Virus record (IMG/VR): IMGVR_UViG_3300016471_000863
DNA from: a virus
Strand: one strand, 5' to 3'
Length of the DNA stretch: 64,000 nucleotides
Shown piece by piece: positions 37,182 to 64,000 of this stretch; the stretch's first letter is position 1, and the number at the start of each line of letters is the position of its first letter. The notes under the pieces were generated by a model. That model was not told the DNA's origin, ran no database searches, and saw only the letters and a program-made list of their open reading frames with translations. Both the position numbers and the translations under genes were made by a program.

Positions 37182-40100
37182 TCAGAGACAATTGCTAGCA
37201 AGAGTTGCCAACTCTGATCTCTCGCCTTTGACTAGTTTTATATGACCAGCAATCTTATATGGTTTGAACTTCTCAATAGCTATAGTTAAACCATTGCTCT
37301 TGGCATCAATATACATATTGTCAATCTGATCTATATCGCCAGTAAGAACAATCTTAGTGTTCTCGCCAACACGAGTAATAATGGTCTTAAGTTCATGAGC
37401 AGTTAAGTTCTGACAATTGTGAACAACTATACCAGAATTATTTTTTGAAGCTCTCGTAGAACAAATTACAAAATTATGCAGATCTTCAACTTCTATATCA
37501 AAAACTTCTTTATTAATTCCTGGATTTAGATCAATAGCATCTACGACAGTTACTCCAGATTCTTCTTCGCAAGAATTCCATTTATAGGTTCCTGCTAAGT
37601 TTTGGTTAACAACCTTATGTGAAAAGTCTGGATGAATATAAGGCTCTATTATTGAAGATAATCTGCAATAATCTTCTTTGTCAAAGATAATATAATAGCA
37701 ATTTTTATCTTTTGATTTCGAATAATCTTTTTGATATTTTACATTCTGCATTCCTAATGAATGAAAATAATTTATAAAGTTTTTTTGACTTTCTTCGTCA
37801 AAAGAATGCGTCGAGATTCTTGCACCATTTTTATTTGGATAGACTGAGCCCTTGTCCATAAACCAGACAGCCAATCCTTTTGGATTTAATTTATTTAAAA
37901 TTTCTAAGTTACAAGTTTTTTTGTTTGAATTAAAATTAATTTTAGAACCAAATATAGGTGTTGTAAATCTAGTGGCTGGATTCTTGCTATATCCATTTTG
38001 TTTACTTTGAGAAGTGAAGCAGTTTAAAATCTCGGACTTAAATTGACAATAATTTTTCTGGCTCTTGCCATAGGCAGCTTTTAATCTATAACGATTTAAT
38101 CCATGCTGAGAAATATTTCCATCTCCGAGATATGAACCCAAAATTATTTGTTCTTGATCTTCATTCCAAGTTTTAAGAAGTTGACTTCTAGCTTTTGGCT
38201 TTGTTGTAACTAGCAAATCTCCCACTGCTAATTCTCTGGCTTTTACATAGCCTTTATCTTTGACCAAGAATGGATGATTTTCTGTGCATTCGATATTTCT
38301 ATTAGAAGATTTAATCTTTATTAAAGATTTATATCCGTTTGACCATGCATTTTTAATGTTTTTGTATACAAAGTTTTTATTTTTTTCATCGTAAGCCAAT
38401 ACTTTTGGTATTTTTTCGCCTTTATTGAATAAAGAAACTAATTTACCAATTGGCATTTTGCCATTTTCTGTATTGATATTTTGATCATATGGAAAACATT
38501 CGTCTATTATGATATAAGCATCTGCGATTGAGCGTCCACGTAGATAGCTAATAGCATCAATCTCAATTAAACCATCTTCAAAAAATCCAGTAAGAGTCAT
38601 TTCGTTTTGACGAGATTTTCTACCTGCTGTTCCGGAAAATAAAAGGTAACGTAAATTATCTTTTATTGGTGCAATCCAAGGCTCCAGCTTCTCTTCCTTG
38701 GTATTGTGAGTAACTACAAAGTTATCCATCACATATAAATGTTCTGGGTGTTCTACCGAGATGCATTGCATTTCTGTATACTTTCCAGTTCTTTTTACGC
38801 TTTCAATTCTTCGTAAGATATGATTTTTTCTCGGTTGCCATCTAATGGCTTTCCGGTCTAAAAGAAAGGGACACATATCTGAATTGTTAAAGGATATCGA
38901 TACCGTATATGAATCATGCTTATGTGGATAATGTTTGATGTTAGCCAACCCACCCAAAGAAAGAACAAGATTTTTAACTCCATTAGCTAATTCTTTTGAA
39001 ATTGTTGCAAAAGATACATCTTTGCCATCTTTTGAAACATAACCATCGGTATCCATCAAACCCTGAAGAAGCAGAAGTCTTTCTTCAACAGAGGCAAAAA
39101 GATAATTTTCTGGGATAAACTTTGTTTTAGAATTTGTGCCACGAAGCCCAAGGCGATTAATAGCTTCGGTTACCACATTGTTTTTTCTTTTCTTTTTTCC
39201 TGTATTACTTTTCATTGTAAATGAATACGAGTAACCACTTTTATGTTTTAAAACAATGTTATTTGGCATAAAGTTGTTAATATTTTCAACAATTTCTTCA
39301 TCATTAGAAGAAAACTCGTTTGCGTATTGTTGGGATACGCAACCATCACCAAGAATACAGCCCAAGACATATGGATGAATTGAAAGCTTTTCTTTTAATG
39401 GCGAATATTTGACGGGTTCTACTACGTCAATAAACAATCGGTTCCAACTTTTTTTATCCCATCCAAGTTCATCTTGTCTTTTTTCTATATCCTTTGTTTG
39501 CATAACTTTTGGTTTAGGATTACTAACAGAATACACAGACCAAGGATGATCTTCGCAGCATTCAATTGTAACGCCGTCTTCAAACGTAATTTCTAATATT
39601 TCTTTTTGTCCTTTTGGATATATATCAGAAACCCTTGTTGGTTTGCCATCTTTTGCAATAACATGGTCATTCTTTTTAATGTCTCCCATCTTCTTCCAAC
39701 CATCGGGAGTGAGAACATTAGTATAAAGTGGGACCGGTCCCGGTAAAAATCCAATGTCATTTCCAACTGGAACTATTGGACGACAGATAAACAATCTCTT
39801 ATAACGTTTCTTTTCGATAACTTGATTTAAGCCAGCGGCTAACGCAGCTATTGTTTTTCCGGTTCCTGCTTGACCTAATATCGTTGCTAATTTTATTTCA
39901 GGATCTAACAATAAATTCATTGCAAGATTCTGCTCTTTATTTCTTGGTAACAAACCATAAATTGGAGATTTAAGATCATTAATAATTTTTAGTGGCTCAT
40001 CTTGACCAAGATAACGTACAGCAAGTTCTTCATCGCTGTTTGGATCTTGAAGAAGTAAAAACTGATTTGGAGCTAACTCTTTTTTAAGCTCGGGCTCAAA

Positions 40101-40688
40101 ATCCAAATAAAATTCTCTTTTTGGATCTTCGGAACATTCCCAATATTCTTGCACATCTTCTTCTGATATATCAACATGAACAGAACCAGTATATAATTTA
40201 TCGACGTTTTCGGTTATATGTGCATTCTTATAATCTTCACATGGAATACCAAGGAAATCACATTTAACACGCAAAAGAATATCACGACTTACAAGGATAG
40301 GATCTGGTTTTCCTTGTTCACGATGTTGTTTCGTTAATCCTCTACAGACATCAAGGATATGATTATCTTTATTTGATGTATCCCAATCTTTGCTAAATTT
40401 TTCATCTTCATCAAAGACGAAATCGCTTATAGCTACAAGCCGTAGGGTGCCACCAGAAGGCAGCAGAACTCCACGCTTTAGGGCACCCTGCTCATTCTCA
40501 GAAATCATTTGCGAAAGGCGTCTAGCTACTTCACGAGCATTGGCACCAACTTCGTTTGTACGGCTTTTAATTTTATCTAATTCTTCTATTGTTGTGAATG
40601 GCAATACAATTTCATTGTCATCAAAAGCGTATAAACTATCGGGATCAGTCAATAAAACGTTTGTATCTAGGATAAGTGTCTTTACCAT
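37182..40688 (-). CDS. phoH: PIN-PhoH (PhoH2-like) ATPase with two inteins; about 462 aa spliced
   Basis: LDTNVL PIN domain, Walker A GQAGTGKT, GFLPG/TKEEK, YLRGRS, IIDE/CQN, TRVGE, LTGDIDQID, RSELA. Confidence 0.95.
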   Translation of the reverse strand: MVKTLILDTNVLLTDPDSLYAFDDNEIVLPFTTIEELDKIKSRTNEVGANAREVARRLSQMISENEQGALKRGVLLPSGGTLRLVAISDFVFDEDEKFSKDWDTSNKDNHILDVCRGLTKQHREQGKPDPILVSRDILLRVKCDFLGIPCEDYKNAHITENVDKLYTGSVHVDISEEDVQEYWECSEDPKREFYLDFEPELKKELAPNQFLLLQDPNSDEELAVRYLGQDEPLKIINDLKSPIYGLLPRNKEQNLAMNLLLDPEIKLATILGQAGTGKTIAALAAGLNQVIEKKRYKRLFICRPIVPVGNDIGFLPGPVPLYTNVLTPDGWKKMGDIKKNDHVIAKDGKPTRVSDIYPKGQKEILEITFEDGVTIECCEDHPWSVYSVSNPKPKVMQTKDIEKRQDELGWDKKSWNRLFIDVVEPVKYSPLKEKLSIHPYVLGCILGDGCVSQQYANEFSSNDEEIVENINNFMPNNIVLKHKSGYSYSFTMKSNTGKKKRKNNVVTEAINRLGLRGTNSKTKFIPENYLFASVEERLLLLQGLMDTDGYVSKDGKDVSFATISKELANGVKNLVLSLGGLANIKHYPHKHDSYTVSISFNNSDMCPFLLDRKAIRWQPRKNHILRRIESVKRTGKYTEMQCISVEHPEHLYVMDNFVVTHNTKEEKLEPWIAPIKDNLRYLLFSGTAGRKSRQNEMTLTGFFEDGLIEIDAISYLRGRSIADAYIIIDECFPYDQNINTENGKMPIGKLVSLFNKGEKIPKVLAYDEKNKNFVYKNIKNAWSNGYKSLIKIKSSNRNIECTENHPFLVKDKGYVKARELAVGDLLVTTKPKARSQLLKTWNEDQEQIILGSYLGDGNISQHGLNRYRLKAAYGKSQKNYCQFKSEILNCFTSQSKQNGYSKNPATRFTTPIFGSKINFNSNKKTCNLEILNKLNPKGLAVWFMDKGSVYPNKNGARISTHSFDEESQKNFINYFHSLGMQNVKYQKDYSKSKDKNCYYIIFDKEDYCRLSSIIEPYIHPDFSHKVVNQNLAGTYKWNSCEEESGVTVVDAIDLNPGINKEVFDIEVEDLHNFVICSTRASKNNSGIVVHNCQNLTAHELKTIITRVGENTKIVLTGDIDQIDNMYIDAKSNGLTIAIEKFKPYKIAGHIKLVKGERSELATLASNCL
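37416..38498 (-). mobile_element. Class 1 intein with LAGLIDADG-type domain, 361 aa
   Basis: Starts CFPYDQ, block B CTENH, VFDIEV, VHN/C; LGSYLGDG and VWFMDKG; inserted in Walker B DE/CQN. Confidence 0.93.
38703..39737 (-). mobile_element. Class 3 intein (Pro1, WCT triad) with LAGLIDADG endonuclease, 345 aa
   Basis: Starts PVPLYTNVLTPDGW; block B CCEDHPW; block F MQCISV; block G VTHN/T; LGCILGDG and QGLMDTDG. Confidence 0.92.
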
Positions 40689-49977: not shown

Positions 49978-50024
49978 ACAATATGCTATTGTATCAAGAA
50001 AAAGAAAACGAATAAATCTATTTA

Positions 50025-51368
50025 ATGAAAATGAAACACATTTTAAAAGAATATATTGAATCTCAAGTTAAAGCAATCCTGAAAGAAGGATTTTATGAAA
50101 ATCCAATGACTACCATTCAAGATGTTTTGAATTCTTTTAGTGGTAAAACTTTAATATTTTTTGATACCGAGACAACAGGACTTTCTGGTACAATGAAATG
50201 GTCGCAGATAACCGAAATTGCTGCGGTAGCATTTGATGACAATGCAAAAGAACTAGGGCAATATCATACAAAAATTAATCTAGGCAATGTTGTTAAAAAT
50301 GAAATAGAAAAGCAAAAGAAAAAACAAAAAAATCAAGAATTTATAAATTTTCTGCAAAAGGAATTGCCAAAACCAGAAAATATATTACAGCTAAAAAACT
50401 TAGAAGAATTTCTAGAGGAATTGGGAACGTCGATACGTAAACAAGAAAATCTTCCAAACAAGAAAAATTTGATAAAATTACAAAAAAATTTACTTGATCA
50501 GCTTTCAAAAAAAATTGAAGAAATATCTGGCGGACAGAGTGCTGATACAAAAAAATTTCCATCTTTAAATAACGATAAGAACTCTTTTAATATCCAAAAT
50601 GAAATTGAAAAAATTATAAAGAATTCAGAAAATACAGCAGGGTTTCATCTTGAAGAAATAAGAAATTTTATAGAAAAAATAACGCAAAAGAATTCATGGG
50701 AACCAGGACGCCAATCTATTGAAGATGTTCTAAAGCTCACAGGATATTATAGTTCAGATGATCCCTCTGTTAAATACATAGAGGAAGGCGAAGCATTAAA
50801 AGGGTTTGTAGAATTTATAAAATCATTTTCAAATCCATTGTTAATTGCCCACAATGCAACATTTGATATGATGCAAATCAATAACGGAATGAAACGACGT
50901 AATTTAGGGGTTTTACCAAAAGACATTCCCGTTTTAGATACGGTTAAATTAGTAAAAAATTATATACATCCACTATTGAGAATATTGAAAGGTGGTTCAC
51001 CGCCCGAAATAACAAAAAGGCTAATAGTTGCTCTATCTTATCCTGCAAAAGATATAAAAAATATGGATATAGAGCAATATAAGCAATTCATTGACGAACA
51101 AAATATAGATGAAATTTATCAAAATGTTAAAAACCTATATGGTTCACTAAAACATTTGGCGGCTGGATTAAATGTTGAATTAAAAAATTGGCATTCCGCT
51201 GTTGCAGATGCCACAGCATTGTCTGGGGTTCTACAGAAACTTTCACAAATAATGACTAGATACGAAAAATTTGAACAAAGATTTGAGATGCAAAGAAAAC
51301 GAGCCTCTGATATTGGTTATCGACGTTCGCAGGAATCAAAAAAGAAAAGAAAAGTTAATTTAACTTAA
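50025..51368 (+). CDS. DEDDh 3'-5' exonuclease (DnaQ-like) with N-terminal leader and helical insertion
   Basis: FFDTETTG (ExoI), IAHNATFD (ExoII), WHSAVADA (ExoIII). Confidence 0.88.
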   Translation: MKMKHILKEYIESQVKAILKEGFYENPMTTIQDVLNSFSGKTLIFFDTETTGLSGTMKWSQITEIAAVAFDDNAKELGQYHTKINLGNVVKNEIEKQKKKQKNQEFINFLQKELPKPENILQLKNLEEFLEELGTSIRKQENLPNKKNLIKLQKNLLDQLSKKIEEISGGQSADTKKFPSLNNDKNSFNIQNEIEKIIKNSENTAGFHLEEIRNFIEKITQKNSWEPGRQSIEDVLKLTGYYSSDDPSVKYIEEGEALKGFVEFIKSFSNPLLIAHNATFDMMQINNGMKRRNLGVLPKDIPVLDTVKLVKNYIHPLLRILKGGSPPEITKRLIVALSYPAKDIKNMDIEQYKQFIDEQNIDEIYQNVKNLYGSLKHLAAGLNVELKNWHSAVADATALSGVLQKLSQIMTRYEKFEQRFEMQRKRASDIGYRRSQESKKKRKVNLT

Positions 51369-51545
51369 TTCCCTAATAATTTGCTGTTCTAATAAATCAA
51401 TTAGTTCTGATGCACGAAATGTAAATGTTTGCTCTAATGCCGGATAAATAAAAGTAATTGAGAAATTATCGTTTTTATTACTTGTCATATAATAGTTGTG
51501 TAAGAACCGGACATAACGGTATATGTTGGTTTATTGTTAGACATA

Positions 51546-52355
51546 TCAATTTTCCTCATGGTCAGCGTCTATTAGCGTTCCGATTTCTATTATCCTTGGA
51601 GAAGGGTCATATTGTATTCTGGTTCTTTCGGAGAATAATTCTTCTGTATATAGATTTCTTCTATGCACCCATTGATCAAGCAACAAGAAGTTAGTTCCTT
51701 TTTCAAGAACGTGTCTATACGAAGTTGGAAGGTCTGGACGTTCTCTTATTTCGGTTTTATGTCGTCGCCGTTCCAGTTCTACCGTTTCAACGGTTATTTC
51801 CCATATTCTTTCTTCGCCAAGAAGCTCTACTGCTGCCACTCCTGGCTCTCTTTCCCAAGCGTGTATTCTAACAGGGAAATCATATGGATTGCGGATTATG
51901 AGATCGGGTTCTGTCCAGTTAACGGTAGCATCAAGACCGGGATCTATATATGTCATATATCTGGAATGATGTTGAGCGTTAAGGATCTCCATTCCGGAGA
52001 ATATGGCTGCGGCGTGTAGAGTGCTTGACACTTGACATATACCACCTCCTGGCGCTATAAAGATTTCTCCATTAAGGATTGTCTTAGCTTGTCTCCATCC
52101 CCGAGAGGCTGTTCTTGGTCCCAGGAGGCGATTATAGGAAAGGGATTGTTCTGGAAGGAGAATGGTTCCATCCAGTTTTCTCATGGCTCTACGAACGTTA
52201 TAGGCACGATTACGTATGATATCTTCCCCTGCATAATGGAAGTGAGTTTCATATGCACCAAGAGTTGTGGTGCCCACGGAGATATCCTGGGCAATAACTG
52301 CTGTAGAGAACAGAATACTATTAAGAACTAATGCTATTAGAAGACGAATATTCAT
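51546..52355 (-). CDS. VanW-family secreted protein with G5-like C-terminus
   Basis: Signal peptide; NRAYN, SYN..LGPRT..GW, GGGICQVSSTL, HS..Y..PGLDATV, DLIIRN; ends RIIEIGT. Confidence 0.88.
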   Translation of the reverse strand: MNIRLLIALVLNSILFSTAVIAQDISVGTTTLGAYETHFHYAGEDIIRNRAYNVRRAMRKLDGTILLPEQSLSYNRLLGPRTASRGWRQAKTILNGEIFIAPGGGICQVSSTLHAAAIFSGMEILNAQHHSRYMTYIDPGLDATVNWTEPDLIIRNPYDFPVRIHAWEREPGVAAVELLGEERIWEITVETVELERRRHKTEIRERPDLPTSYRHVLEKGTNFLLLDQWVHRRNLYTEELFSERTRIQYDPSPRIIEIGTLIDADHEEN

Positions 52356-52463
52356 GCTTTGATGATACCATTACTATGTTATGATTTATAATAGAAAATT
52401 GTAACCCATATGAGAATTTTTTGAATTATAATTTTTTATAAGCATTAAGTGAAAATAAAAAAG

Positions 52464-52499
52464 CAAAAAGCTATCAAATTTATGTCTAATAGCTTTTTG
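52464..52499. terminator. Possible terminator (AT-rich inverted repeat)
   Basis: CAAAAAGCTAT-N14-ATAGCTTTTTG. Confidence 0.4.
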
Positions 52500-52544
52500 A
52501 GTTTATGAACTATACTTGTTTAAACAGTATGAATATTAAACAAT

Positions 52545-53708
52545 TCATCTCTTTCTGAGTTCTTTTTTTATTGATTCACGAATGTAGTCTCTTATCGATG
52601 CTAAAACTTCTTGATCCGCTTCTCCACGTCCTCTGGTTTCTGGATTAAAAATAGCTACTATTTCGGGTCTAACTTTTTCATGAACAGCTTTTGCTATATT
52701 TGGAAATGGCATATCAAGTTTTTCAGGATCATACTTAAAGAAGAGATCTTTGAGATGTGTTATTGCATTTTCTTCTGTAATTTCTCCTCTTAAATAATCT
52801 GTTATGAATTGCCTTTCTGCTTCATTCAGATCTTCGACATTCATTGCTAATTTTATATTATTTATTTCTTCAAGGCTAAGTTTAGTAAAATCTTCAGGAG
52901 AAACATCAGCTAGTTTTATATCTAAATTATTTAATAATTCTGTGATAAATTTTTCAATTTCTTCATCAATAATTTTTATTAAAACATTGTGTACTTCTGC
53001 AATAGCTTTATTAAAATCTTCTGGATTTTTTAAATTGACTTTGCCTTTTCTAACGGCTTTTAAAATAGCAGAAATTTTTTCACGACTTTTGCCTTTGAAT
53101 ATAGGAGCCAATGAAGTCATTTGAGACAATTTTTCCATCGCAGCGGCTTCTATTTTTTCTGCCATTTGTTTTGTAACATCTAATACATCTGCAATTTTTT
53201 GCAATGTTTCTTCGCCAGTTTGATAAACTGGTTCCGGTCTTTTTTCTGTTTCTTCTGTATCTACAACAGAAGATGTTTCTAATCTTTCTGAACCTGGGAT
53301 CCATTTTCGTAATGAATCTTTCAGTGCTTTAACGGATAAAAATTGAAGTGAGGGAAATTCAGAACTAACTTGTTTTATGTCTTCTTTATTTTCTATTGGA
53401 GAATAAAGTTTGTCAATTAAATCTTCAAGAGAAAACCCTAATTTTTTTTCATTAAAGAGCTTTACAAATGTTGGATATTTTCGATTTATTTCGTCAACAA
53501 CATTTTTTTTAACTTGTTCTGTGGTTTTTAGTTCTCTTGTTTGTTTAGCTTCTTTAAGAATTGCTTCTTTTATCATTGAACGAATTTCATTCACAGAAAT
53601 TTTCTTTGTGCTTTTTGCAACTGGTTTACGTTTTGTAGCGGCTTCTGCAATTTGCATGGCTGCAACTTTGCGGATTAAAGTTCTTAATTCATTTAATTTT
53701 ATTTTCAT
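52545..53708 (-). CDS. Hypothetical protein with sigma70 region-4-like HTH and repeated amphipathic leader motifs
   Basis: ETLQKIADVLDVTKQMAEKIEAAAMEKL parallels TLEEIG..LGVTRERIRQIEAKALRKL; MKIKLNELRTLIR start. Confidence 0.55.
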   Translation of the reverse strand: MKIKLNELRTLIRKVAAMQIAEAATKRKPVAKSTKKISVNEIRSMIKEAILKEAKQTRELKTTEQVKKNVVDEINRKYPTFVKLFNEKKLGFSLEDLIDKLYSPIENKEDIKQVSSEFPSLQFLSVKALKDSLRKWIPGSERLETSSVVDTEETEKRPEPVYQTGEETLQKIADVLDVTKQMAEKIEAAAMEKLSQMTSLAPIFKGKSREKISAILKAVRKGKVNLKNPEDFNKAIAEVHNVLIKIIDEEIEKFITELLNNLDIKLADVSPEDFTKLSLEEINNIKLAMNVEDLNEAERQFITDYLRGEITEENAITHLKDLFFKYDPEKLDMPFPNIAKAVHEKVRPEIVAIFNPETRGRGEADQEVLASIRDYIRESIKKELRKR

Positions 53709-53762
53709 TTTATACCCATAGAAATCTTTTTGTAATTATTTGAAGAAATTATGATTCACATA

Positions 53763-54053
53763 TCAATCTTCAGATTTTTTTTCTTCAGCAGAGGAATTTG
53801 AATTTTTAGAAGAGGATTCTGAGGTAGAATTGGCAGCACTCTTATCAGCCCATCTACGTCCAAAGTATAAAACTGTAAGTGGTGTTAGATAACTCATTGC
53901 CTCTGTGCCGGAAAATTCTCTTATTTTAATACCGAAAGCTTCTTCTACAATAGACACAAGAAGCCATAGGGTAACTACGGTAAATCCTATTACCATCATG
54001 GTAAATGAAGCAGATTTTTTTCCATCACTTTGTTCTAAAAGAGGTACTTTCAT
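53763..54053 (-). CDS. Small two-TM membrane protein, holin-like
   Basis: Two hydrophobic segments, YFGRR, charged tail; follows spanin-like genes. Confidence 0.5.
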   Translation of the reverse strand: MKVPLLEQSDGKKSASFTMMVIGFTVVTLWLLVSIVEEAFGIKIREFSGTEAMSYLTPLTVLYFGRRWADKSAANSTSESSSKNSNSSAEEKKSED

Positions 54054-54074
54054 ATAAATCCTTTTTATTAAGTA

Positions 54075-54650
54075 TTAATTGGCAGCAACAAATCCCATTA
54101 GGAAACCACCAATAACTCCAACGAGTAAACCACCAGCACCAACTAGCACAGCATCCCATGGAAATTCTGAACCACGATTAATAACTCGCTCGTTTAATCT
54201 CATTAATCTGGCAATCTCAGCATCTCTTGCCTCTATAACAATACGAAAACGAGCACGATCCCCATTAATCTGTATTCGTAATTCTTCTACTTCTGTTCGT
54301 AATCTTAAATCATAAGCGGTTCTTATGCTTTCCATAGATACCGCCACACGTTCTTGATAAGCTTCAAGTTCAGCTATAATATAAGCCGCTTGTTCACTTG
54401 AAAAGAAAACGCCTGGATATGGTGCTCTAAACTCTTGATTTAGAGTTAAGGCAACCGGTGATGGAGTAGGAGTTGGATTAGGCTCTACTGCGGGCACCAC
54501 AACGGCTTCTACAGGGGCTAACTCAATAGGAGGCATATCTGGGAAGCCATGATCATCTACAGCGGTTGTAGAGCCTCCTGGAAGGTTTCCTGTAGTGCAA
54601 CCAACCAATAGGGTGATTAATAAGATATGTGAGATTAGTTTTTTAATCAT
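54075..54650 (-). CDS. Lipoprotein, spanin-like, with C-terminal hydrophobic helix
   Basis: Lipobox LVG/C, Pro-rich linker, coiled coil, AVLVGAGGLLVGVIGGFLMGFV. Confidence 0.6.
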   Translation of the reverse strand: MIKKLISHILLITLLVGCTTGNLPGGSTTAVDDHGFPDMPPIELAPVEAVVVPAVEPNPTPTPSPVALTLNQEFRAPYPGVFFSSEQAAYIIAELEAYQERVAVSMESIRTAYDLRLRTEVEELRIQINGDRARFRIVIEARDAEIARLMRLNERVINRGSEFPWDAVLVGAGGLLVGVIGGFLMGFVAAN

Positions 54651-55063
54651 GGTGTTGTCCTTCCAAAGCCAAATGTTCTGTTATAGCTATCAACCAAGTC
54701 TGAAGAATTATTTGTTAGCTCATTTGTTCTTATGGAACGATTTCTGCGTATACGATCTATTTGTTCTTGAAGATCGGATCTTATCTCTTCCACTCTTCTT
54801 TCATAATCTCGTCTGAGGGTTTCTCTTGCTTCTCTTTCGGAAGTAACTGTATTATTTAGTTGGGTAATGGTATTATGATTTTGAGCGATAGCCGCATTTT
54901 GTTCTTCAATAAGGGCAGACATATCAGAATTTCTTTGATTTATTTCATTAAATCTCTGATAGGCAAAATAACCGGCTACCGCCACTCCAACAATAAGGAG
55001 CAACGATAGCCAGTTGTTAATAAAAAATGATTTAACTAAGTTATTTGTATTTGGCGTTTCCAT
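54647..55063 (-). CDS. i-spanin-like inner-membrane protein
   Basis: N-terminal TM then long coiled coil; ATGA-coupled to the lipoprotein. Confidence 0.6.
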   Translation of the reverse strand: METPNTNNLVKSFFINNWLSLLLIVGVAVAGYFAYQRFNEINQRNSDMSALIEEQNAAIAQNHNTITQLNNTVTSEREARETLRRDYERRVEEIRSDLQEQIDRIRRNRSIRTNELTNNSSDLVDSYNRTFGFGRTTP

Positions 55064-55064
55064 G

Positions 55065-55463
55065 CTAGTTCATTTCGTGTTTTTTTGGAATTCTTGTTAA
55101 AGAATCAAAATCTTTATTATCAGACTGTTTATCTGACGCATTATCGGAAGTTTTTACGCCAACTAGGTCATTAGTTCCAAAGACATGATATATTTCTTCA
55201 ACCATGGTTGCCGCATTTAGAAGCAAATCATTTGATGCTTTTTGATTTTCCACAACATCATTTAATTTAACAAGTAAGAAATTCATAACTTTCTCTACAT
55301 TTGATAGGCGTTTTTCTAATTTTTCTAATTGTATAGAATCTAAGTTTGTTATTTTATCTGAGACGAGAGCATATAGTTCGGAGTCTTTTTTCACCTCTAC
55401 TATTTCAACATCCTTACCGTTAAGCACATCAAAAGCTTTTTTAATTCTATTGAAGAATGTCAT
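55065..55463 (-). CDS. Hypothetical coiled-coil protein
   Basis: SD GAGG; heptad pattern. Confidence 0.55.
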   Translation of the reverse strand: MTFFNRIKKAFDVLNGKDVEIVEVKKDSELYALVSDKITNLDSIQLEKLEKRLSNVEKVMNFLLVKLNDVVENQKASNDLLLNAATMVEEIYHVFGTNDLVGVKTSDNASDKQSDNKDFDSLTRIPKKHEMN

Positions 55464-55481
55464 AGGAACCTCTTTCTTTTA

Positions 55482-55757
55482 TTATGTATTTTTCAATTGC
55501 TGTTCTATTAGAGAATAGATTGTATCTGCATCTGCTTTTTCTAATTTTCTATCTAATGCTCTATCTAATTTATACTTTTTTGCTCCTTCGTATAATGCCT
55601 CTATTTGTGGGTCGCACATAGCGACTTTTGTTGCTATATATGAGAAAAATAATTGTGGATTTAGACCTTTTTGAAAAAGAATTCTTCTCAAGTCGAGTAA
55701 TTGTTGATGCTCAAATTGAAAAGTAATAGTTCTCTTTTCAAGTTTTTCCAAAATCAT
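55482..55757 (-). CDS. Hypothetical protein
   Basis: ATGA-coupled to the upstream gene. Confidence 0.55.
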   Translation of the reverse strand: MILEKLEKRTITFQFEHQQLLDLRRILFQKGLNPQLFFSYIATKVAMCDPQIEALYEGAKKYKLDRALDRKLEKADADTIYSLIEQQLKNT

Positions 55758-56410
55758 CCTCCTGATGCTGCGGAATTTGGACCGGTAGTTCCATACAACA
55801 CAGGATCTGAGTAATCCTCTGGGAAAGCGGTTGATGTTGGATGAATTCCGTAATTTTGTTCCATCATTTCTGTAAACTGTTTTGCAGTTTGTGAATCATA
55901 ATTTGATGCAATATAAGCTTCTGCACGATTTAAAATAATCGTTTTTGGATCTGACAATGCTTCGAAATTATTGATTAATCTTGCTACGGATCTAGCAAAA
56001 TCATTTAAGTTAATAATTGGAGTTTTGAAAATTGGATTTTCTTCTGCTGGACCTCCTCCTCCTCCTCCTCCTCCTCCACCTGTATCTGGTGGAGGTTCGC
56101 TTGTATCTCCACCTCCTTCGGCGGCACCAGGATCTTCCTGTTCAAATAAGAATTTTTGCAATAATTTTACATTGTTGCTTGCAGCACTTTCCATCATTGG
56201 TAGTTTATCTAAACCGATATTATCGGACATAGGAATACTTTCCTTTTCATATCTGATTAGATAACGATCTATAACTTGATCTAAAGAGATTGGTCTGCTT
56301 TTTTGCTTTGAAAAGTCTGCAATTTTTTTTGGATATGACATTTGCGGCATTTGCTCTTGCAAGACTTTTGCATTTGTTGTTAGAGGTGCTTTTTTTATTT
56401 TTCTTTTCAT
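55754..56410 (-). CDS. Hypothetical protein with poly-Gly/Pro linker (candidate head protein)
   Basis: VLQEQ and FLFEQE followed by acidic G/P linker; (CCT)n run at 56052-56077. Confidence 0.6.
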   Translation of the reverse strand: MKRKIKKAPLTTNAKVLQEQMPQMSYPKKIADFSKQKSRPISLDQVIDRYLIRYEKESIPMSDNIGLDKLPMMESAASNNVKLLQKFLFEQEDPGAAEGGGDTSEPPPDTGGGGGGGGGGPAEENPIFKTPIINLNDFARSVARLINNFEALSDPKTIILNRAEAYIASNYDSQTAKQFTEMMEQNYGIHPTSTAFPEDYSDPVLYGTTGPNSAASGG

Positions 56411-56429
56411 ATGGATACCAATCTTTGAT

Positions 56430-57392
56430 TCAAACTATTCGTGAAGTACCAGGCTGTTGAGGAACCATTACAGGAGAACCTACCCCAGATGGAATTGCAG
56501 GAGAAACCGTGCCTTGAACTGGCTGTACGCTAGCAATTGGCAATTCTTCAGCTTTTTCTGCCGCTGCTAAGAGTTTTTCTGGTCCATCATTTACCATTGG
56601 CATAATTTGATATATTAAATTTAAATTTGCATTTTCGGCAACTTTCATTCGTGCTTCTATAACATCCCAATTTAACTCTTTCATCATGCCAATTAGATAT
56701 GATTTTTTATCATCAAGATAATCTTTAAAATATGCATGTTCCCACATGTCCATAACAATAACAGGAATTGCACCTACAGGAATATCTTTGTTGTGACTAT
56801 TGACAATTACATTCATGTACTTGTTTTTATATGGTTCATACACACACATAGCCCAACCATTTCTCGCTGATAATGCGGTGGAAATAAAATCAAGTTGCCA
56901 AGCTTCAAAAGTTCCCCAATCACGAGCCAATCTCATATAAGGAAAAGAATTAACGCTTATTTCTGAATTTAAATCTGAAATGTTTGCCCAATATAATTCA
57001 TGTAATTTGATGCCATTTAAATTGTAATTTTCATCTACTTTTAATGAACGAAAGGAGCTGTGAGTTGAATTTGCATTTTGTCTATTAACCGCATCTAATT
57101 CAGAAGAAATTTTGTTGAAAGAATCTACATATTTTTTATATAAATTGAAATGTGCTTCTTTTGCACCTTTTGATAATCTTTCTGTTTTTAAGATAAAGTT
57201 TTTTGGAATTGCTACAAGAGCTTCTTGTAGGGTTGCAATTTTTTCTTTCATGTTTGTTAAAACTTTAACTGGAGTTTTTAGAAGTGGTTCTTCTTTTGAT
57301 TCTTTAATCAAACCATTTGTTTTAAACGTAGTTTGAATTGAATCACGAATTAAAGAACGGAGTTCTTCGGGTTTAAATTTAATTTTTGACAT
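56430..57392 (-). CDS. Fe/Mn superoxide dismutase (Aquifex-like Fe-SOD subgroup) with N- and C-terminal extensions
   Basis: AHFNLYKKYV, ANSTHSSFRSLKVDENYNLNGIKLHELYW, DMWEHAY. Confidence 0.92.
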   Translation of the reverse strand: MSKIKFKPEELRSLIRDSIQTTFKTNGLIKESKEEPLLKTPVKVLTNMKEKIATLQEALVAIPKNFILKTERLSKGAKEAHFNLYKKYVDSFNKISSELDAVNRQNANSTHSSFRSLKVDENYNLNGIKLHELYWANISDLNSEISVNSFPYMRLARDWGTFEAWQLDFISTALSARNGWAMCVYEPYKNKYMNVIVNSHNKDIPVGAIPVIVMDMWEHAYFKDYLDDKKSYLIGMMKELNWDVIEARMKVAENANLNLIYQIMPMVNDGPEKLLAAAEKAEELPIASVQPVQGTVSPAIPSGVGSPVMVPQQPGTSRIV

Positions 57393-57475
57393 TTGTTCCT
57401 CAGAGATGGTTCATTCTCATAATAAATAGGAATACCCATATAGAATTTCAAATAAATGAAAAATCATTATTTATT

Positions 57476-59554: not shown

Positions 59555-62500
59555 TCATCTGTTTTTAATTAATATCTCTATTTGTCCAAAGAAAGAAGAA
59601 AAACCAAAATTACTATTTTTAAATTTACCTACAATCAGAGTATTCTCAGGAATTGGCTGATCTTTGGCAGGATTAAAATTCCAACAAAAACACTGGTAAT
59701 CTTTCATCTCGTGCCCATACATATTAATCTTTAGATACGTTTTTCCAGTTTTAGTTGTAGCCTTAAAAGAATTTTTAACAATTGCCCAATACGTATCATC
59801 TTCTTCTTGCCAGGAATCAATACTTTCAATATTAGATAATTCTAAAAATTCTTTTATCTCTGGAGTTACTATCAAACTCATATCAATAGTCCCAGATAAT
59901 TGTTTACTAAATTCTACTTTCTCTTTCAAAGAGAAATCTTCAAGATCCTGCGCTTCTGCAATTAATTTCTGCAATATTTCTCTATGATTCTTATTCTTTT
60001 TTCTATTAATTGCACGCTTAACATCATCGCCCTTATCTACCAATACATGGTGAAGCTGACGATAATTCTTAAACATCTTGTCCTCTCCAACCAAACCCAT
60101 GCTTCCAAAGGCTTCAAGCTTGATTAGAGTAGACAACGCACGCTTATTAAACTTGGAATGACGCCATGTGTCATTGGGGCTAAACAACAAATCTTCAAGA
60201 TTGTTATAGGGGCGATATTCGTTAATCTCATTAAGAACCGTCATACCAACGTGCTTAAGAGAAGCGAACGATGGAATAAGCTTTCCATCCCGGATCGTAT
60301 AATCCTTCTCAGAGAGATTGATATCCGGCTTACCGATAGAGAAACCAAGTGCCTTAGCCTCAGATAGAGCAATAGCCTTTGGATCTTCCTTGCCAGCTTG
60401 CTTACCTTTCTCGGTGGCACAGTAATCAATGTAGGTGGTAATCCATTCCTCTGGATAGTAGGTTAGGAGCCATGCACAAGTATAAGAAACAAGGGAATAG
60501 CTAACTGCGTGACTCTTATTGAACGAATAAGCTACGAACTTTTCCATTTCATCAAAGATACTATAGCTGATTTCCTTAGCGATATTGTTTACAGCAAGGC
60601 AGCGATTAGCAAAGTCTTCACGCATTGCCTCACGTTCCTTTGCAGCCTTTTCCTTATTGGATAGATCCTTCTTGGTGAATGCCTTACGAACATTGTCGGT
60701 TTCTTCAAGAGGAACACCGGCAAGCCGATGGTAGATTAGCTGTAGCTGCTCTTGAAAGATGATTAAACCCGATGTGCTTTCTAGTACGTCTTTGAGTAGC
60801 GGGTGTTTATATGTAATCTTAGATGGGGTTTTACGATTATTTAAATAAAGCTTGTCAGCACCGATACTATTATGTACCACTAGCCCGCCCGCAAAAAAAT
60901 TGTGGTGAGGAGCCGCCATTTCAATATCATATGTTTCCTCTATTCCGTGAGATTCAATGCCAAGAAATTTGACCATTCGAATATCATCATTTAAAACCAA
61001 ACGGTTTTCAGCCATTTTTTGTTGAAGAATTTCTTTGCTAATATTTCCTTCAGTATATTCACGGTGATGATTAGGGCATAGAAAAGATAGATTTTCTGGT
61101 GAATTATTGTATTTTCGTCCACCTTCTACGTGATTCGTGTCTAAACTTCCAGATTTCCAGTCACAAAAACAGCAACGATGTCGATAATTTAAAAAAGCTA
61201 TGTTTCTGAAATTTTTCTCGCCATGAATGTTTTTGGTAGCTCTCGATATCGATGGAAGCTGAGTTTTGTGCATAAAAAGATAATCACCTTCTTTAAGTTT
61301 TCTAAGAGGTTTCCAACCGTCTAATGTAAGAAACATGTGATCCAGCGTGGCTTTAAGTGGTTTAATGGCACTACGCATATTACATTTTCCGGTATCAATA
61401 ATTTGACATGGACCTTCTACCCTAAGTTGAACTTTGAGGGACCAAACTTCTTTCTTGCCTGATTTGATTATACGAATTTTTTTATTTGATACAATGGTAT
61501 TTGTATTTTCATCCAAAGAACAAAGATTATTCGAATATCTGGCATGTGCTACAGGATATTCTTGTTCGTTATAAAGTTGCTCAATAGATTTGTATTTGAA
61601 ATAACGACCATTATATTTGTGACGAGATACTAGAATTTGCGTTCCAGCAGACAAACAAAGTGGTCCCGGTCTAAAAATTGAAGTAGCTACAGAAAGATCG
61701 GTAATGTTGGTAGGTTTCATTTCTGCCATAAACTTCTGAACCTGTGGATTAATAAACTGGAATACTCCAGCATATCTACTCTCCCACCAAACGTTTCTAT
61801 ACACTTTTTGATCAGTAAGATCAAGTTTATCCGGATGAAGTTTGTCATCATACCACTTTTTGATCATATCAAAAGTAACATACTTCCTATTGGGATTTTC
61901 TTTACGGACAATCTTACGGATACACTCCTCAAACATTCGGAGGGTTCCAAGACCGAGGATATCAAACTTTAGAAGCCCGAAACCTTCAAGGTGGCGTGCA
62001 TTAAGACCTTCTGGCCATGGAGTTTGCAGAACATCGCCGCTCTTAATGATTGGCATATTATCTCGTGGATTGCTGGTAATAATTACACCGCCAGCGTGAC
62101 GAGATACGTTTCGCATCTGCTTGAATAAAACACGAACTGTCTTTTCAAACTCTGGATACTTCTCCATCAACTCACGGAATGAAGGAGAGTTATTCTCAGC
62201 TTCCTCATAGGTAAGAACCCATCCAGCACGATCAAATCCTGGCGTCTTCTTAGCCTCTGCAAGAGCTTCATTCTCAATCTTGCCGGTATACTTGTTTACT
62301 TCATCAAATGATAGACCAGCAAGACGAGCAACGTCCTTAATCAAACTGCGTAGCTGTAGCTGATTAAAGTTAGAAACTGAGATAACGTTCTCTGTCCCGA
62401 AGTAATCACCAATAAGCTTAACAGCCTTTTCACGATCACCGAAATCGCTGTCTATGTCTGGGTATGAATTTTTCTTAAGCCTTGTTAAGAACCTTTCAAA

Positions 62501-64000
62501 CAATAAACCGTATTTAATTGGATCTACCTGAGTAATTTCTAAACAATAACTTAATAGAGAACCTGCGGCGCTACCTCTTCCATAGCCAATCAACATATGT
62601 TTTGAAGCAATATCCATGATCTTGGCATATGTAAGGAAATACTTGGCAAACTTAAGTTCCTTGATTACTCCAAGCTCGTATACAAGACGGTCAATATATT
62701 CTGATTCCTCATCTCTATTACGGTTCTTAAGACCAATCTTAGCAAGACGCTTCAACTCTTCAAAAGCAAGAACGTCCTCGCCTGCACCTTCACCAAGCTT
62801 TTCAATGGCATCTTCAAGGTGAGTCTTTGAAACAAGCTTCTCAATAACAGGAAGCTTAACAGAACGATCAAAATCAACCGTTCCAATCTGATTGTGAGCG
62901 ATATCCCAGGTGCGCTCAATAGCATCACGGACTACATCATCATTATAACAATCAAATCCAGCGGTATAATGCTTGTAGCTGTCCCAAATCTGCTGAACGT
63001 TCTTTGGATATAGCTCGCACTTAAGCTCCTCTACCTTCTGAGGAAGCTTGGATGCATCTACACCATCCTTGGACTTTGAAGCCCAAGCCATAGCCTTATA
63101 GAGCTCTCGTTCACGCCAATGATCCGGATTAGAATAGTGGCTATCGCAAGTCACAACGAGATTTGTATTTGTGCGCTTTGCAGCTTCCATAATGTGGAAG
63201 TTCTTTAGATGCTGGGCACCAAGACGGTTAAACTGCATTTCAAGGTAATAGTTCTCTTCCCCAAGAGCATCCTTGAAAGCATGGATCATATCCTTTAGTT
63301 CACTCTGAATAAGCTCAAAGTTATCCATATTAGGTTTCCATGCATTCCAATCTGGATTTGTTTGATGAGAAGCAATGATATGCATATCTGCACCGGCAAC
63401 GCAAGCAGAAAGAGCAATAAGATTACCCTTTGCTTCACGCTTAAGCATATCCAAATCAATGCGGGGATATTTGTAGAACCCATCAATATATGAGTTAGAT
63501 ACAAGGCGGAATAGGGTCTTTAGTCCCGCTGTATTCTTTGGAAGCAAGACAAGATGATTACGTCGCTGAATAGGATCACGATATTTATTGGACTTACTAT
63601 CGTCCTCGTTTTCTACTACAGTTCCACCTTCTTCATCTTCATCGGTCTTAGCGACTACTCCAGCCATTTCTTCAAGTTCAGCCTTGGCAGAAGCAAGTTC
63701 ATCACCGATATTGTTTGGATTAGCTGCAAGCCGCTTTGCTTCTTTCTCAGCAGCCTTAGCTTCATCCTGTGCGTTCTTTAGCTTACGCCATTCTGCGAGG
63801 GAGGGGATATAATAGGCTTCTACACCTGATAGAGCCTTGAATGGAACGCCCTTATCTTTTAGTTTCTTTGCATGGAGATATTGATAGGAAAACCCATTCA
63901 TATTTCCGTGATCGGTTAGAGCGAGGGCATCAGAACCATTCTTGACGGCGTAATCGATATGATCTTGTGGCATACCGATTCCATCTCCAATCGAGAAAGG
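59555..64000 (-). CDS. dnaE: DNA polymerase III alpha subunit with intein (5' end beyond the window)
   Basis: Frame open to the edge (SIGDGIGMPQ); PHP ALTDHG, GRGSAAGSL, PDIDSD, RHAGG, KFDILGL, FNKSHA. Confidence 0.97.
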   Translation of the reverse strand, partial: PFSIGDGIGMPQDHIDYAVKNGSDALALTDHGNMNGFSYQYLHAKKLKDKGVPFKALSGVEAYYIPSLAEWRKLKNAQDEAKAAEKEAKRLAANPNNIGDELASAKAELEEMAGVVAKTDEDEEGGTVVENEDDSKSNKYRDPIQRRNHLVLLPKNTAGLKTLFRLVSNSYIDGFYKYPRIDLDMLKREAKGNLIALSACVAGADMHIIASHQTNPDWNAWKPNMDNFELIQSELKDMIHAFKDALGEENYYLEMQFNRLGAQHLKNFHIMEAAKRTNTNLVVTCDSHYSNPDHWRERELYKAMAWASKSKDGVDASKLPQKVEELKCELYPKNVQQIWDSYKHYTAGFDCYNDDVVRDAIERTWDIAHNQIGTVDFDRSVKLPVIEKLVSKTHLEDAIEKLGEGAGEDVLAFEELKRLAKIGLKNRNRDEESEYIDRLVYELGVIKELKFAKYFLTYAKIMDIASKHMLIGYGRGSAAGSLLSYCLEITQVDPIKYGLLFERFLTRLKKNSYPDIDSDFGDREKAVKLIGDYFGTENVISVSNFNQLQLRSLIKDVARLAGLSFDEVNKYTGKIENEALAEAKKTPGFDRAGWVLTYEEAENNSPSFRELMEKYPEFEKTVRVLFKQMRNVSRHAGGVIITSNPRDNMPIIKSGDVLQTPWPEGLNARHLEGFGLLKFDILGLGTLRMFEECIRKIVRKENPNRKYVTFDMIKKWYDDKLHPDKLDLTDQKVYRNVWWESRYAGVFQFINPQVQKFMAEMKPTNITDLSVATSIFRPGPLCLSAGTQILVSRHKYNGRYFKYKSIEQLYNEQEYPVAHARYSNNLCSLDENTNTIVSNKKIRIIKSGKKEVWSLKVQLRVEGPCQIIDTGKCNMRSAIKPLKATLDHMFLTLDGWKPLRKLKEGDYLFMHKTQLPSISRATKNIHGEKNFRNIAFLNYRHRCCFCDWKSGSLDTNHVEGGRKYNNSPENLSFLCPNHHREYTEGNISKEILQQKMAENRLVLNDDIRMVKFLGIESHGIEETYDIEMAAPHHNFFAGGLVVHNSIGADKLYLNNRKTPSKITYKHPLLKDVLESTSGLIIFQEQLQLIYHRLAGVPLEETDNVRKAFTKKDLSNKEKAAKEREAMREDFANRCLAVNNIAKEISYSIFDEMEKFVAYSFNKSHAVSYSLVSYTCAWLLTYYPEEWITTYIDYCATEKGKQAGKEDPKAIALSEAKALGFSIGKPDINLSEKDYTIRDGKLIPSFASLKHVGMTVLNEINEYRPYNNLEDLLFSPNDTWRHSKFNKRALSTLIKLEAFGSMGLVGEDKMFKNYRQLHHVLVDKGDDVKRAINRKKNKNHREILQKLIAEAQDLEDFSLKEKVEFSKQLSGTIDMSLIVTPEIKEFLELSNIESIDSWQEEDDTYWAIVKNSFKATTKTGKTYLKINMYGHEMKDYQCFCWNFNPAKDQPIPENTLIVGKFKNSNFGFSSFFGQIEILIKNR
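60869..61657 (-). mobile_element. Class 1 intein carrying an HNH endonuclease, 263 aa
   Basis: RPGPL/CLSAGT start, ATLDH, TYDIEM, VHN/S; central CCFC..DTNH..NN..NL..LCPNHH. Confidence 0.92.

Follow-up and report, generated by a model that had tools for sequence, protein, structure and literature searches.

Short N-terminal leaders of two classes on a superoxide dismutase, a 387-residue protein and an exonuclease of an uncultured T4-like phage: possible capsid-targeting propeptides

In a 64,000-nucleotide stretch of viral DNA (IMG/VR virus record IMGVR_UViG_3300016471_000863; the whole stretch is referred to as the window), an Fe/Mn superoxide dismutase (SOD), a 387-amino acid (387-aa) protein and a DEDDh exonuclease, otherwise unrelated to each other, each begin with a short N-terminal peptide, and in the orthologues of all three this leader ends in a conserved L/I-x-E followed by a small residue. 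A preliminary description of the same DNA had listed the three open reading frames (ORFs) and their N-terminal sequences, which are as described, and had proposed that one modular tag loads the proteins into the phage head. The leader observation was confirmed in part: there are two tags, class A on SOD and the 387-aa protein and class B on the exonuclease, rather than one. The best explanation for these leaders, to which we give an even chance, is that they would be propeptides of the T4 capsid-targeting type; the case for it is weaker in the exonuclease than in the other two proteins.

The analysed sequence (G000) is part of the genome of a very large T4-like phage that has not been cultured; it is a 128,872-bp IMG/VR virus record of 33% G+C with a CheckV completeness of 28%. 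Taken as its reverse complement, the window matches the opening 63 kb of G000 with 3 mismatches and extends 928 bases past the end of G000. It contains genes for a DnaE-type polymerase, a PIN-PhoH protein, a primase-polymerase and YadA-like fibre proteins, a long sugar-gene island and a lysis cassette, and the part of G000 outside the window contains baseplate, sheath, recombination and ribonucleotide reductase genes. Relatives were retrieved via SOD or the sheath protein at 36-50% identity. Among them, G008 (305 kb, with terminal repeats) is 100% complete, and G001 is syntenic with G000 in the sheath-to-recombination region.

Leaders of the three proteins

The SOD gene is organized as follows.

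56430-57392, - strand: Fe/Mn SOD gene (Pfam Sod_Fe_C, E=1.9e-18)
57222..57392, - strand: N-terminal extension, residues 1-57 (PDB alignment, structure model, orthologue alignment)
56628..57221, - strand: Fe/Mn SOD domain, residues 58-255 (Sod_Fe_C, E=1.9e-18; Sod_Fe_N, E=5e-4; PDB SOD matches to E=6e-25)
56433..56627, - strand: Pro-rich C-terminal tail, residues 256-320 (past the last aligned SOD residue)

The extension consists of a class A amphipathic helix at about residues 8-25 (with ELRSLIRDSI), a variable linker with GLIKE31, and TLQE57 followed by Ala58. In the best PDB alignment (1coj), canonical SOD residue 1 falls at about residue 55 of the phage protein. The AlphaFold2 (AF2) model, with a predicted local distance difference test score (pLDDT) of 39-53 over residues 1-57 and 72-91 afterwards, becomes confident from about residue 60, and the extension is not packed against the fold. 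The claim that this extension is absent from the cellular family was thus borne out. The protein is otherwise an Fe/Mn SOD, with a two-domain fold modelled confidently over residues 60-255 and with the His, His, Asp and His metal ligands (H81, H131, D215 and H219) all invariant; the tail is mostly of low confidence (block means 37-65, pLDDT <50 at 263-269 and 283-320).

We aligned fourteen SOD orthologues from IMG/VR and one ENA contig. The extension varied from about 25 to 62 residues and its sequence drifted, the amphipathic helix being present nearly always. Its last residues were always (L/I)-x-E, with Ala, Gly or Ser next (14/14 sequences, with I in one); E57 was invariant and L55 was kept in at least 90% of the 14 orthologues. 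This conserved (L/I)-x-E sits exactly where the canonical SOD fold begins.

In the 387-aa protein, two class A leaders are arranged in tandem.

52545-53708, - strand: gene of the 387-aa protein (no family above threshold)
53643..53708, - strand: class A leader copy 1, residues 1-22, MKIKLNELRTLIRKVAAMQIAE then Ala (nearly invariant in six family members)
53550..53606, - strand: class A leader copy 2, residues 35-53, KKISVNEIRSMIKEAILKE then Ala (invariant residues, profile)
53124..53213, - strand: Sigma-70 region-4-like helix-turn-helix (HTH) segment, residues 166-195 (sub-threshold match to Pfam Sigma70_r4)
52557..52604, - strand: C-terminal leader look-alike, residues 369-384, ASIRDYIRESIKKELR (hit by 6 relatives' probes; status uncertain)

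The tandem leaders are the best conserved part of this family, which is tiny (5 clusters in 1.84 billion proteins). In copy 2, K35, K36, I37, S38, E41, R43, S44, M45, I46, K47, E48, A49 and E53 are invariant, and cut-like sites, I-A/M-E↓A/S and K-E↓A, were found in 6/6 members. With a leader profile built from relatives only, copy 1 scored 7.5 bits and copy 2 scored 9.5 bits, each shuffled proteome giving on average 0.1 hits at 6 bits or more; copy 2 was also the strongest target in the genome for the probes from relatives. The distant homologue P0054 carries a single, different leader, which argues for modular exchange. A third, C-terminal leader (IRDYIRESIKKEL) had been assigned to this protein; it is leader-like in G000, as the 6 relatives' probes indicate, but is not conserved in orthologues.

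The 387-aa protein had also been labelled an HTH, transcription-related protein. A Sigma70_r4 match (E=0.016) was indeed found in 5/6 family members, but at 15.1 bits it lies below the 24.1-bit cut-off. A search of PDB sequences with the 387-aa protein gave no match, so that membership of the Sigma-70 region 4 family was not established by either the Pfam score or a PDB match, and the AF2 model (mean pLDDT 47) was unusable for fold search. A role in transcription is therefore a weakly based suggestion.

The exonuclease gene lies on the opposite strand.

50025-51368, + strand: DEDDh exonuclease gene (Pfam RNase_T, E=1.1e-11, residues 44-98; PHROG 192, 'DNA polymerase exonuclease subunit', E=1e-16)
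50025..50087, + strand: class B leader, residues 1-21, MKMKHILKEYIESQVKAILKE then GFYENP (orthologues, N-terminal scores)
50088..51368, + strand: DEDDh (RNase T / DnaQ-like) body with a long K/E-rich insertion (Pfam, PHROG)

All homologues possess the Exo I motif FFDTETTG of DEDDh nucleases, the later motifs lying beyond the long insertion. The nine full-length orthologues (P0012-P0020) all have a leader that ends (L/M)-x-E↓GFYENP (9/9). More distant homologues start with MLKEGY or bear other leaders.

To compare leaders, the 30-residue N-termini of all G000 proteins were matched pairwise, with internal 30-residue segments as the composition control. The leaders of SOD and the 387-aa protein scored 35 against each other (KFKPEELRSLIR / KIKLNELRTLIR), which ranked 22 among 6555 G000 pairs; the pairs above it were mostly paralogues, and the internal-segment controls yielded 3.25 pairs at 35 or more. 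Their shared class A motif is ELR[ST]LIR, or in a wider form MK(I)x(L)xELRxLIR. The exonuclease leader scored only 14-20 against either of them, which is background; classes A and B are not significantly alike. It belongs instead to class B, xLKEYIExxVKxILKE, together with two other proteins of G000 (C1 119474, 531 aa, score 35; C1 117582, 356 aa, score 32). Similar leaders on three unrelated proteins, as claimed in the preliminary description, thus hold for the class A pair but not for the exonuclease, and a single modular tag on all three proteins was rejected.

The similarity within classes extends to the relatives. The exonuclease leader scored 53 against an unrelated 94-aa protein of G003 (47% G+C) and 44 against one of G002. 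Each of the three proteins had 12-13 unrelated N-terminal partners, the 95th percentile being 13 among the 574 proteins of G000 and three related contigs. In ungapped BLOSUM scans (single 30-residue leaders being too insensitive in phmmer), probes built from relatives only struck N-terminal positions 3.4 times more often than the number of such positions allows, and leader copy 2 of the 387-aa protein and the N-termini of the exonuclease, the 387-aa protein and SOD ranked near the top in G000. The conserved leader residues are encoded by differing codons, so selection acts on the peptide. In relatives, leaders of both classes are found on enzymes of the NUDIX and NT5C types as well as on numerous small proteins without assigned function.

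Among these small proteins are the products of a run in G001 (C1 28-12351, L032), where more than 10 adjacent small genes all encode proteins starting with MKIT(K/R)(R/K)Q(L/I)R(R/K)(I/V)I(K/R)E. This run recalls the hyperplastic internal-protein loci of T-even phages.

Head genes of related phages

A Peptidase_S77 prohead protease was found in all six of the relatives of at least 100 kb that were tested (G001, G008, G009, G010, G011 and G016). A gp23-type capsid protein was present in both relatives tested for it, and G001 also has a T4-type portal. With T4 gp23 taken from the T4 record for alignment, the capsid proteins of G001 and G008 (2/3 relatives) were seen to keep L-x-E↓A at the gp23 cleavage position; G011 has LKE-T nearby. 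The specificity of the protease is thus probably the same as in T4.

The leaders could be linked to proteins of the head module. In G008, the top N-terminal match to the leaders of SOD (score 49) and the 387-aa protein (46-48) was a 126-aa protein whose gene immediately follows that of the capsid protein. When its first 26 residues were used as the query in G000, the highest score was that of SOD (10.2 bits) and the next that of the 387-aa protein (6.1 bits), and shuffled proteomes gave none at 10 bits or more. For class B, the gene adjoining that of the protease in G001, G008 and G011 encodes a protein of one family (192 aa in G008), which starts with a leader-like helix ending KEG-AFNE, comparable to ILKEG-FYEN of the exonuclease. 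A profile of the N-termini of these protease-adjacent core proteins, searched against G000, hit a 112-aa protein, p356 and the second leader copy in the 387-aa protein but missed the exonuclease; the link between the exonuclease and this head protein is therefore based on alignment by eye.

The idea that the leader mimics the capsid N-terminus (MSKKFTLNQL...), attractive by eye, was rejected: the class A profile from relatives was silent on the capsid N-termini of G001, G008 and G011.

Two further observations were made at head genes. An 81-aa ORF of G002 (C1 17732-17977, L042) is like the N-terminal conserved block of gp23 only (RRIFP...VSVQPM...FFLDYTY); its Pfam Gp23 match covers positions 10-60, and a wider frame contains a TGA. 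In G001, a 380-aa protein encoded adjoining the capsid gene (C1 143730-144872, L039) has a Gly-rich GVGGGGGK that by eye recalls the nucleotide loop of tubulin/FtsZ.

Upstream motif and gene neighbourhood

The following elements flank the three genes.

57423..57429, - strand: CTATTTA, 37 nt upstream of the SOD start codon (canonical copy)
53733..53739, - strand: ATAATTA, 31 nt upstream of the gene of the 387-aa protein (non-canonical, the A at position 4 being outside the enriched set)
50018..50024, + strand: CTATTTA abutting the exonuclease ATG (-7; an unlikely promoter)
54069-54075, - strand: a further copy of [AC]TA[CT]TTA in the window
52464..52499, - strand: terminator-like hairpin just downstream of the gene of the 387-aa protein
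53763-55063, - strand: lysis cassette between SOD and the gene of the 387-aa protein

The enriched form of the upstream motif is [AC]TA[CT]TTA; MTAHTTA, as given before, is too loose. Upstream of genes, it occurred in the sense/antisense orientation 19/9 times in G000, 25/8 in G001, 33/10 in G008 and 6/0 in G011 (40 kb). In relatives it precedes genes for the head protease and for scaffold-like, sheath-like, holin-like and SOD proteins (G008, G001 and G011; loci L080-L097 and L032-L041). Sigma-70-type promoters were not enriched in the region (26 found vs 34.6 expected). We take [AC]TA[CT]TTA to be the probable late promoter of these T4-like phages, distinct from that of T4 itself, TATAAATA.

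MTAHTTA had been placed upstream of all three genes. SOD does have a canonical CTATTTA at -37, and CTATTTA or ATACTTA is found upstream of SOD in both G000 and G008, but the 387-aa protein has a variant only, and the copy at the exonuclease abuts the ATG and so cannot act as a promoter together with a ribosome site; other copies of the motif are mostly at -12 to -53. ATAATTA is kept in the syntenic relative L052, but the whole spacer is conserved there. As a putative promoter, the motif is convincing for SOD only.

The hairpin closes a co-directional cluster made up of SOD, the lysis genes and the gene of the 387-aa protein. The lysis cassette encodes a 96-aa holin-like membrane protein (kept in G008 and L052), a 191-aa protein with a lipobox (LLVGC) and a 138-aa Rz-like spanin (PHROG 214, E=9e-7). 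Directly downstream of SOD is the gene of a 218-aa protein with a poly-Gly run (55754-56410, - strand), and this pair is kept in G001, G002, G003, G008 and L052. Between the genes of the 387-aa protein and the exonuclease is that of a VanW-domain protein (51546-52355, - strand; E=3e-38) with a signal-like hydrophobic N-terminal segment; at this position L052 has no VanW gene and has PEP mutase and other genes instead. Elsewhere in the window there are inteins, one in the DnaE-type polymerase and two in the PIN-PhoH protein, the latter with LAGLIDADG endonucleases (intein-bearing loci 59555-63973 and 37182-40688, both - strand).

Capsid targeting and its alternatives

If the leaders serve capsid targeting, the following steps could be envisaged. 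Late in infection, tagged proteins would attach by their amphipathic leader to the scaffold core while the prohead is being assembled. A T4-type prohead protease (gp21 family) would then cut after the conserved (L/I)-x-E, namely at TLQE57↓A in SOD, at IAE22↓A and LKE53↓A in the 387-aa protein and at LKE21↓G in the exonuclease. The mature proteins would be freed inside the capsid and would leave with the DNA at the next infection.

To our knowledge, the capsid targeting sequence (CTS) of T4 is the only well-understood route by which soluble proteins are loaded into the head of a tailed phage and delivered with its DNA. It serves a handful of small internal proteins. The CTS, with the sequence MKTYQEFIAE (PMC8442874), is found in IPI, IPII and IPIII and is removed by gp21 after L/I-x-E; the N-terminal 10 residues of IPIII are enough for packaging, a protein with Asp at the cleavage position is still targeted but no longer cut, and foreign enzymes have been packaged into the T4 head via the CTS (PMC9026906, PMC3012670). 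By the same rule, LIRD in the first leader of SOD would leave cutting to the downstream sites. The leaders described here are like the CTS in being short N-terminal peptides on unrelated proteins, in ending with (L/I)-x-E plus a small residue and in belonging to a clade with gp21-, gp20- and gp23-type genes. Unlike the CTS, they are about 15-22 residues long, form two classes and have no sequence identity to the CTS; they may be in tandem, as in the 387-aa protein, or, as in SOD, be separated from a second site by a 30-residue linker, and their cargo would include recognisable enzymes.

Other head proteins provide further comparisons. Class A (MKIKLNELRTLIRK, KISVNEIRSMIKE↓A) resembles by eye the 10-residue propeptide of T4 gp24 (MAKINELLRE↓S; that of gp22 is MLKEQLIAE↓A), and the protease-adjacent protein of relatives starts with a class B-like helix, but the likeness extends over 5-8 residues by eye and the leader profile misses the capsid N-terminus of relatives. 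In phiKZ, 201phi2-1 and SPN3US, a diverged gp21 homologue processes ejection or inner-body proteins after S/A-x-E (PMC9026906, PMC5694885). Many head-internal proteins of these giant phages, enzymes included, are likewise targeted and Glu-trimmed by the prohead protease, whereas the lineage and the cleavage motif are different and a short N-terminal tag common to the cargo has not been described for them. Chlorovirus PBCV-1 and Megavirus chilensis package a Cu,Zn SOD in the virion, which is thought to counter reactive oxygen at entry. These SODs and the one in the window are all virus-encoded; the giant-virus enzyme is carried in the particle, is of the Cu,Zn rather than the Fe/Mn type, belongs to another realm and has no protease-removed leader.

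The T4-like capsid-targeting idea of the preliminary description is thus retained, with the T4-type head genes of the clade, the capsid cleavage site, the conserved (L/I)-x-E, the likeness of the leaders to head-module N-termini and the promoter-like motif that SOD has in common with head and tail genes in its favour, but without the single tag. Several points weigh against it. Docking, cleavage, packaging and ejection or injection are all steps that we infer, in a reading built from sequences. Genes for the protease, scaffold and capsid were not found in the 129 kb of G000 (a record about 28% complete), and homologues in cultured phages, looked for with the SOD extension, the 387-aa protein, the sheath protein and the distant exonuclease homologue P0037, were not found either. 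(L/I)-x-E is frequent by chance (1.25 per 100 residues genome-wide), and two such sites in 60 residues are not unusual. The first leaders of SOD and the 387-aa protein end in LIRD and LIRK, neither with Glu, and a single receptor is not implied by two classes that are not significantly alike. In addition, a baseplate gp6-like protein has a conserved N-terminus that looks like class A, KK(E/Q)L(L/Q)K(T/I)I(K/R)ER(R/K)YLNKDF.

G000 C1 68794-70647 (L028:5795-7648) and G008 268679-270526: baseplate gp6-like protein with the leader look-alike

The presence of a look-alike on a tail protein indicates that the motif is not specific to head cargo. The exonuclease poses a problem of its own: its gene is on the opposite strand and has no usable promoter motif, the protein is of the DnaQ-like 'polymerase exonuclease subunit' family, and a DnaE gene is located 8 kb away. 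The exonuclease may equally be a proofreading subunit of the (DnaE) replisome.

In another reading, which we regard as rather unlikely, the leaders would be docking or oligomerisation helices for cytoplasmic partners (DnaE for the exonuclease; assembly or regulation for SOD), and the Glu sites would be helix-capping or linker residues. The family and the DnaE neighbour of the exonuclease, its lack of a well-placed late motif, the conserved look-alike on the baseplate protein and the conservation of each leader within its own protein family are all in keeping with such docking. Left unexplained are the same N-terminal motifs on unrelated bodies across four genomes, the closest matches in the complete relative, which are head-module proteins, and the invariance of (L/I)-x-E exactly at the boundary of the SOD fold, in an extension that otherwise drifts. 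The SOD extension is also not packed against the fold in the model.

Alternatively, the leaders could be zymogen-like propeptides that provide inactivity or timed late processing by the head protease or another protease, with no packaging or injection. We consider this improbable. Conserved Glu sites at domain boundaries, a T4-type protease in the clade and a late-promoter-like motif at SOD would fit, but the likeness of the leaders to head-module N-termini would not be explained, and cleavage without targeting would be unprecedented in the gp21 family, since the substrates that T4 gp21 cuts are core-associated and lie within the prohead (PMC9026906).

Chance or composition, with Lys/Ile/Glu/Leu-rich N-terminal helices recurring at 33% G+C and being grouped by eye, is very improbable and already largely refuted for similarity within classes: it would account for the background likeness between classes A and B, for two (L/I)-x-E sites in 60 residues and for a promoter consensus that had been stretched to fit, but the internal-segment and shuffled controls were exceeded, N-termini were enriched 3.4-fold for matches to leaders of relatives, the exonuclease leader matched an unrelated protein of a 47% G+C relative at 53, and the leaders are kept in orthologues through different codons.

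Starting from capsid targeting by propeptides, a more ambitious proposal can be made, which we put forward tentatively and hold to be more doubtful than the propeptide reading itself. The clade might possess an expanded cargo system in which two orthogonal leader classes load active enzymes and a sigma-region-4-like DNA-binding protein, which would be released by the protease and injected to condition the host at entry. The cargo, on this tentative proposal, would include the Fe/Mn SOD and the DEDDh exonuclease and, in relatives, NUDIX and nucleotidase enzymes. Each class may be directed to a layer or partner of its own in the prohead core.

If the leaders work as the CTS does, uncultured giant T4-like phages exploit the T4 mechanism more extensively than T4 itself and for true enzymes, and a packaged SOD would imply that phage fitness is affected by oxidative stress, either at entry or within the particle. 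The two leader classes would then be natural orthogonal packaging tags for phage engineering. The motif [AC]TA[CT]TTA would give a working late-promoter consensus for a clade without a cultured member.

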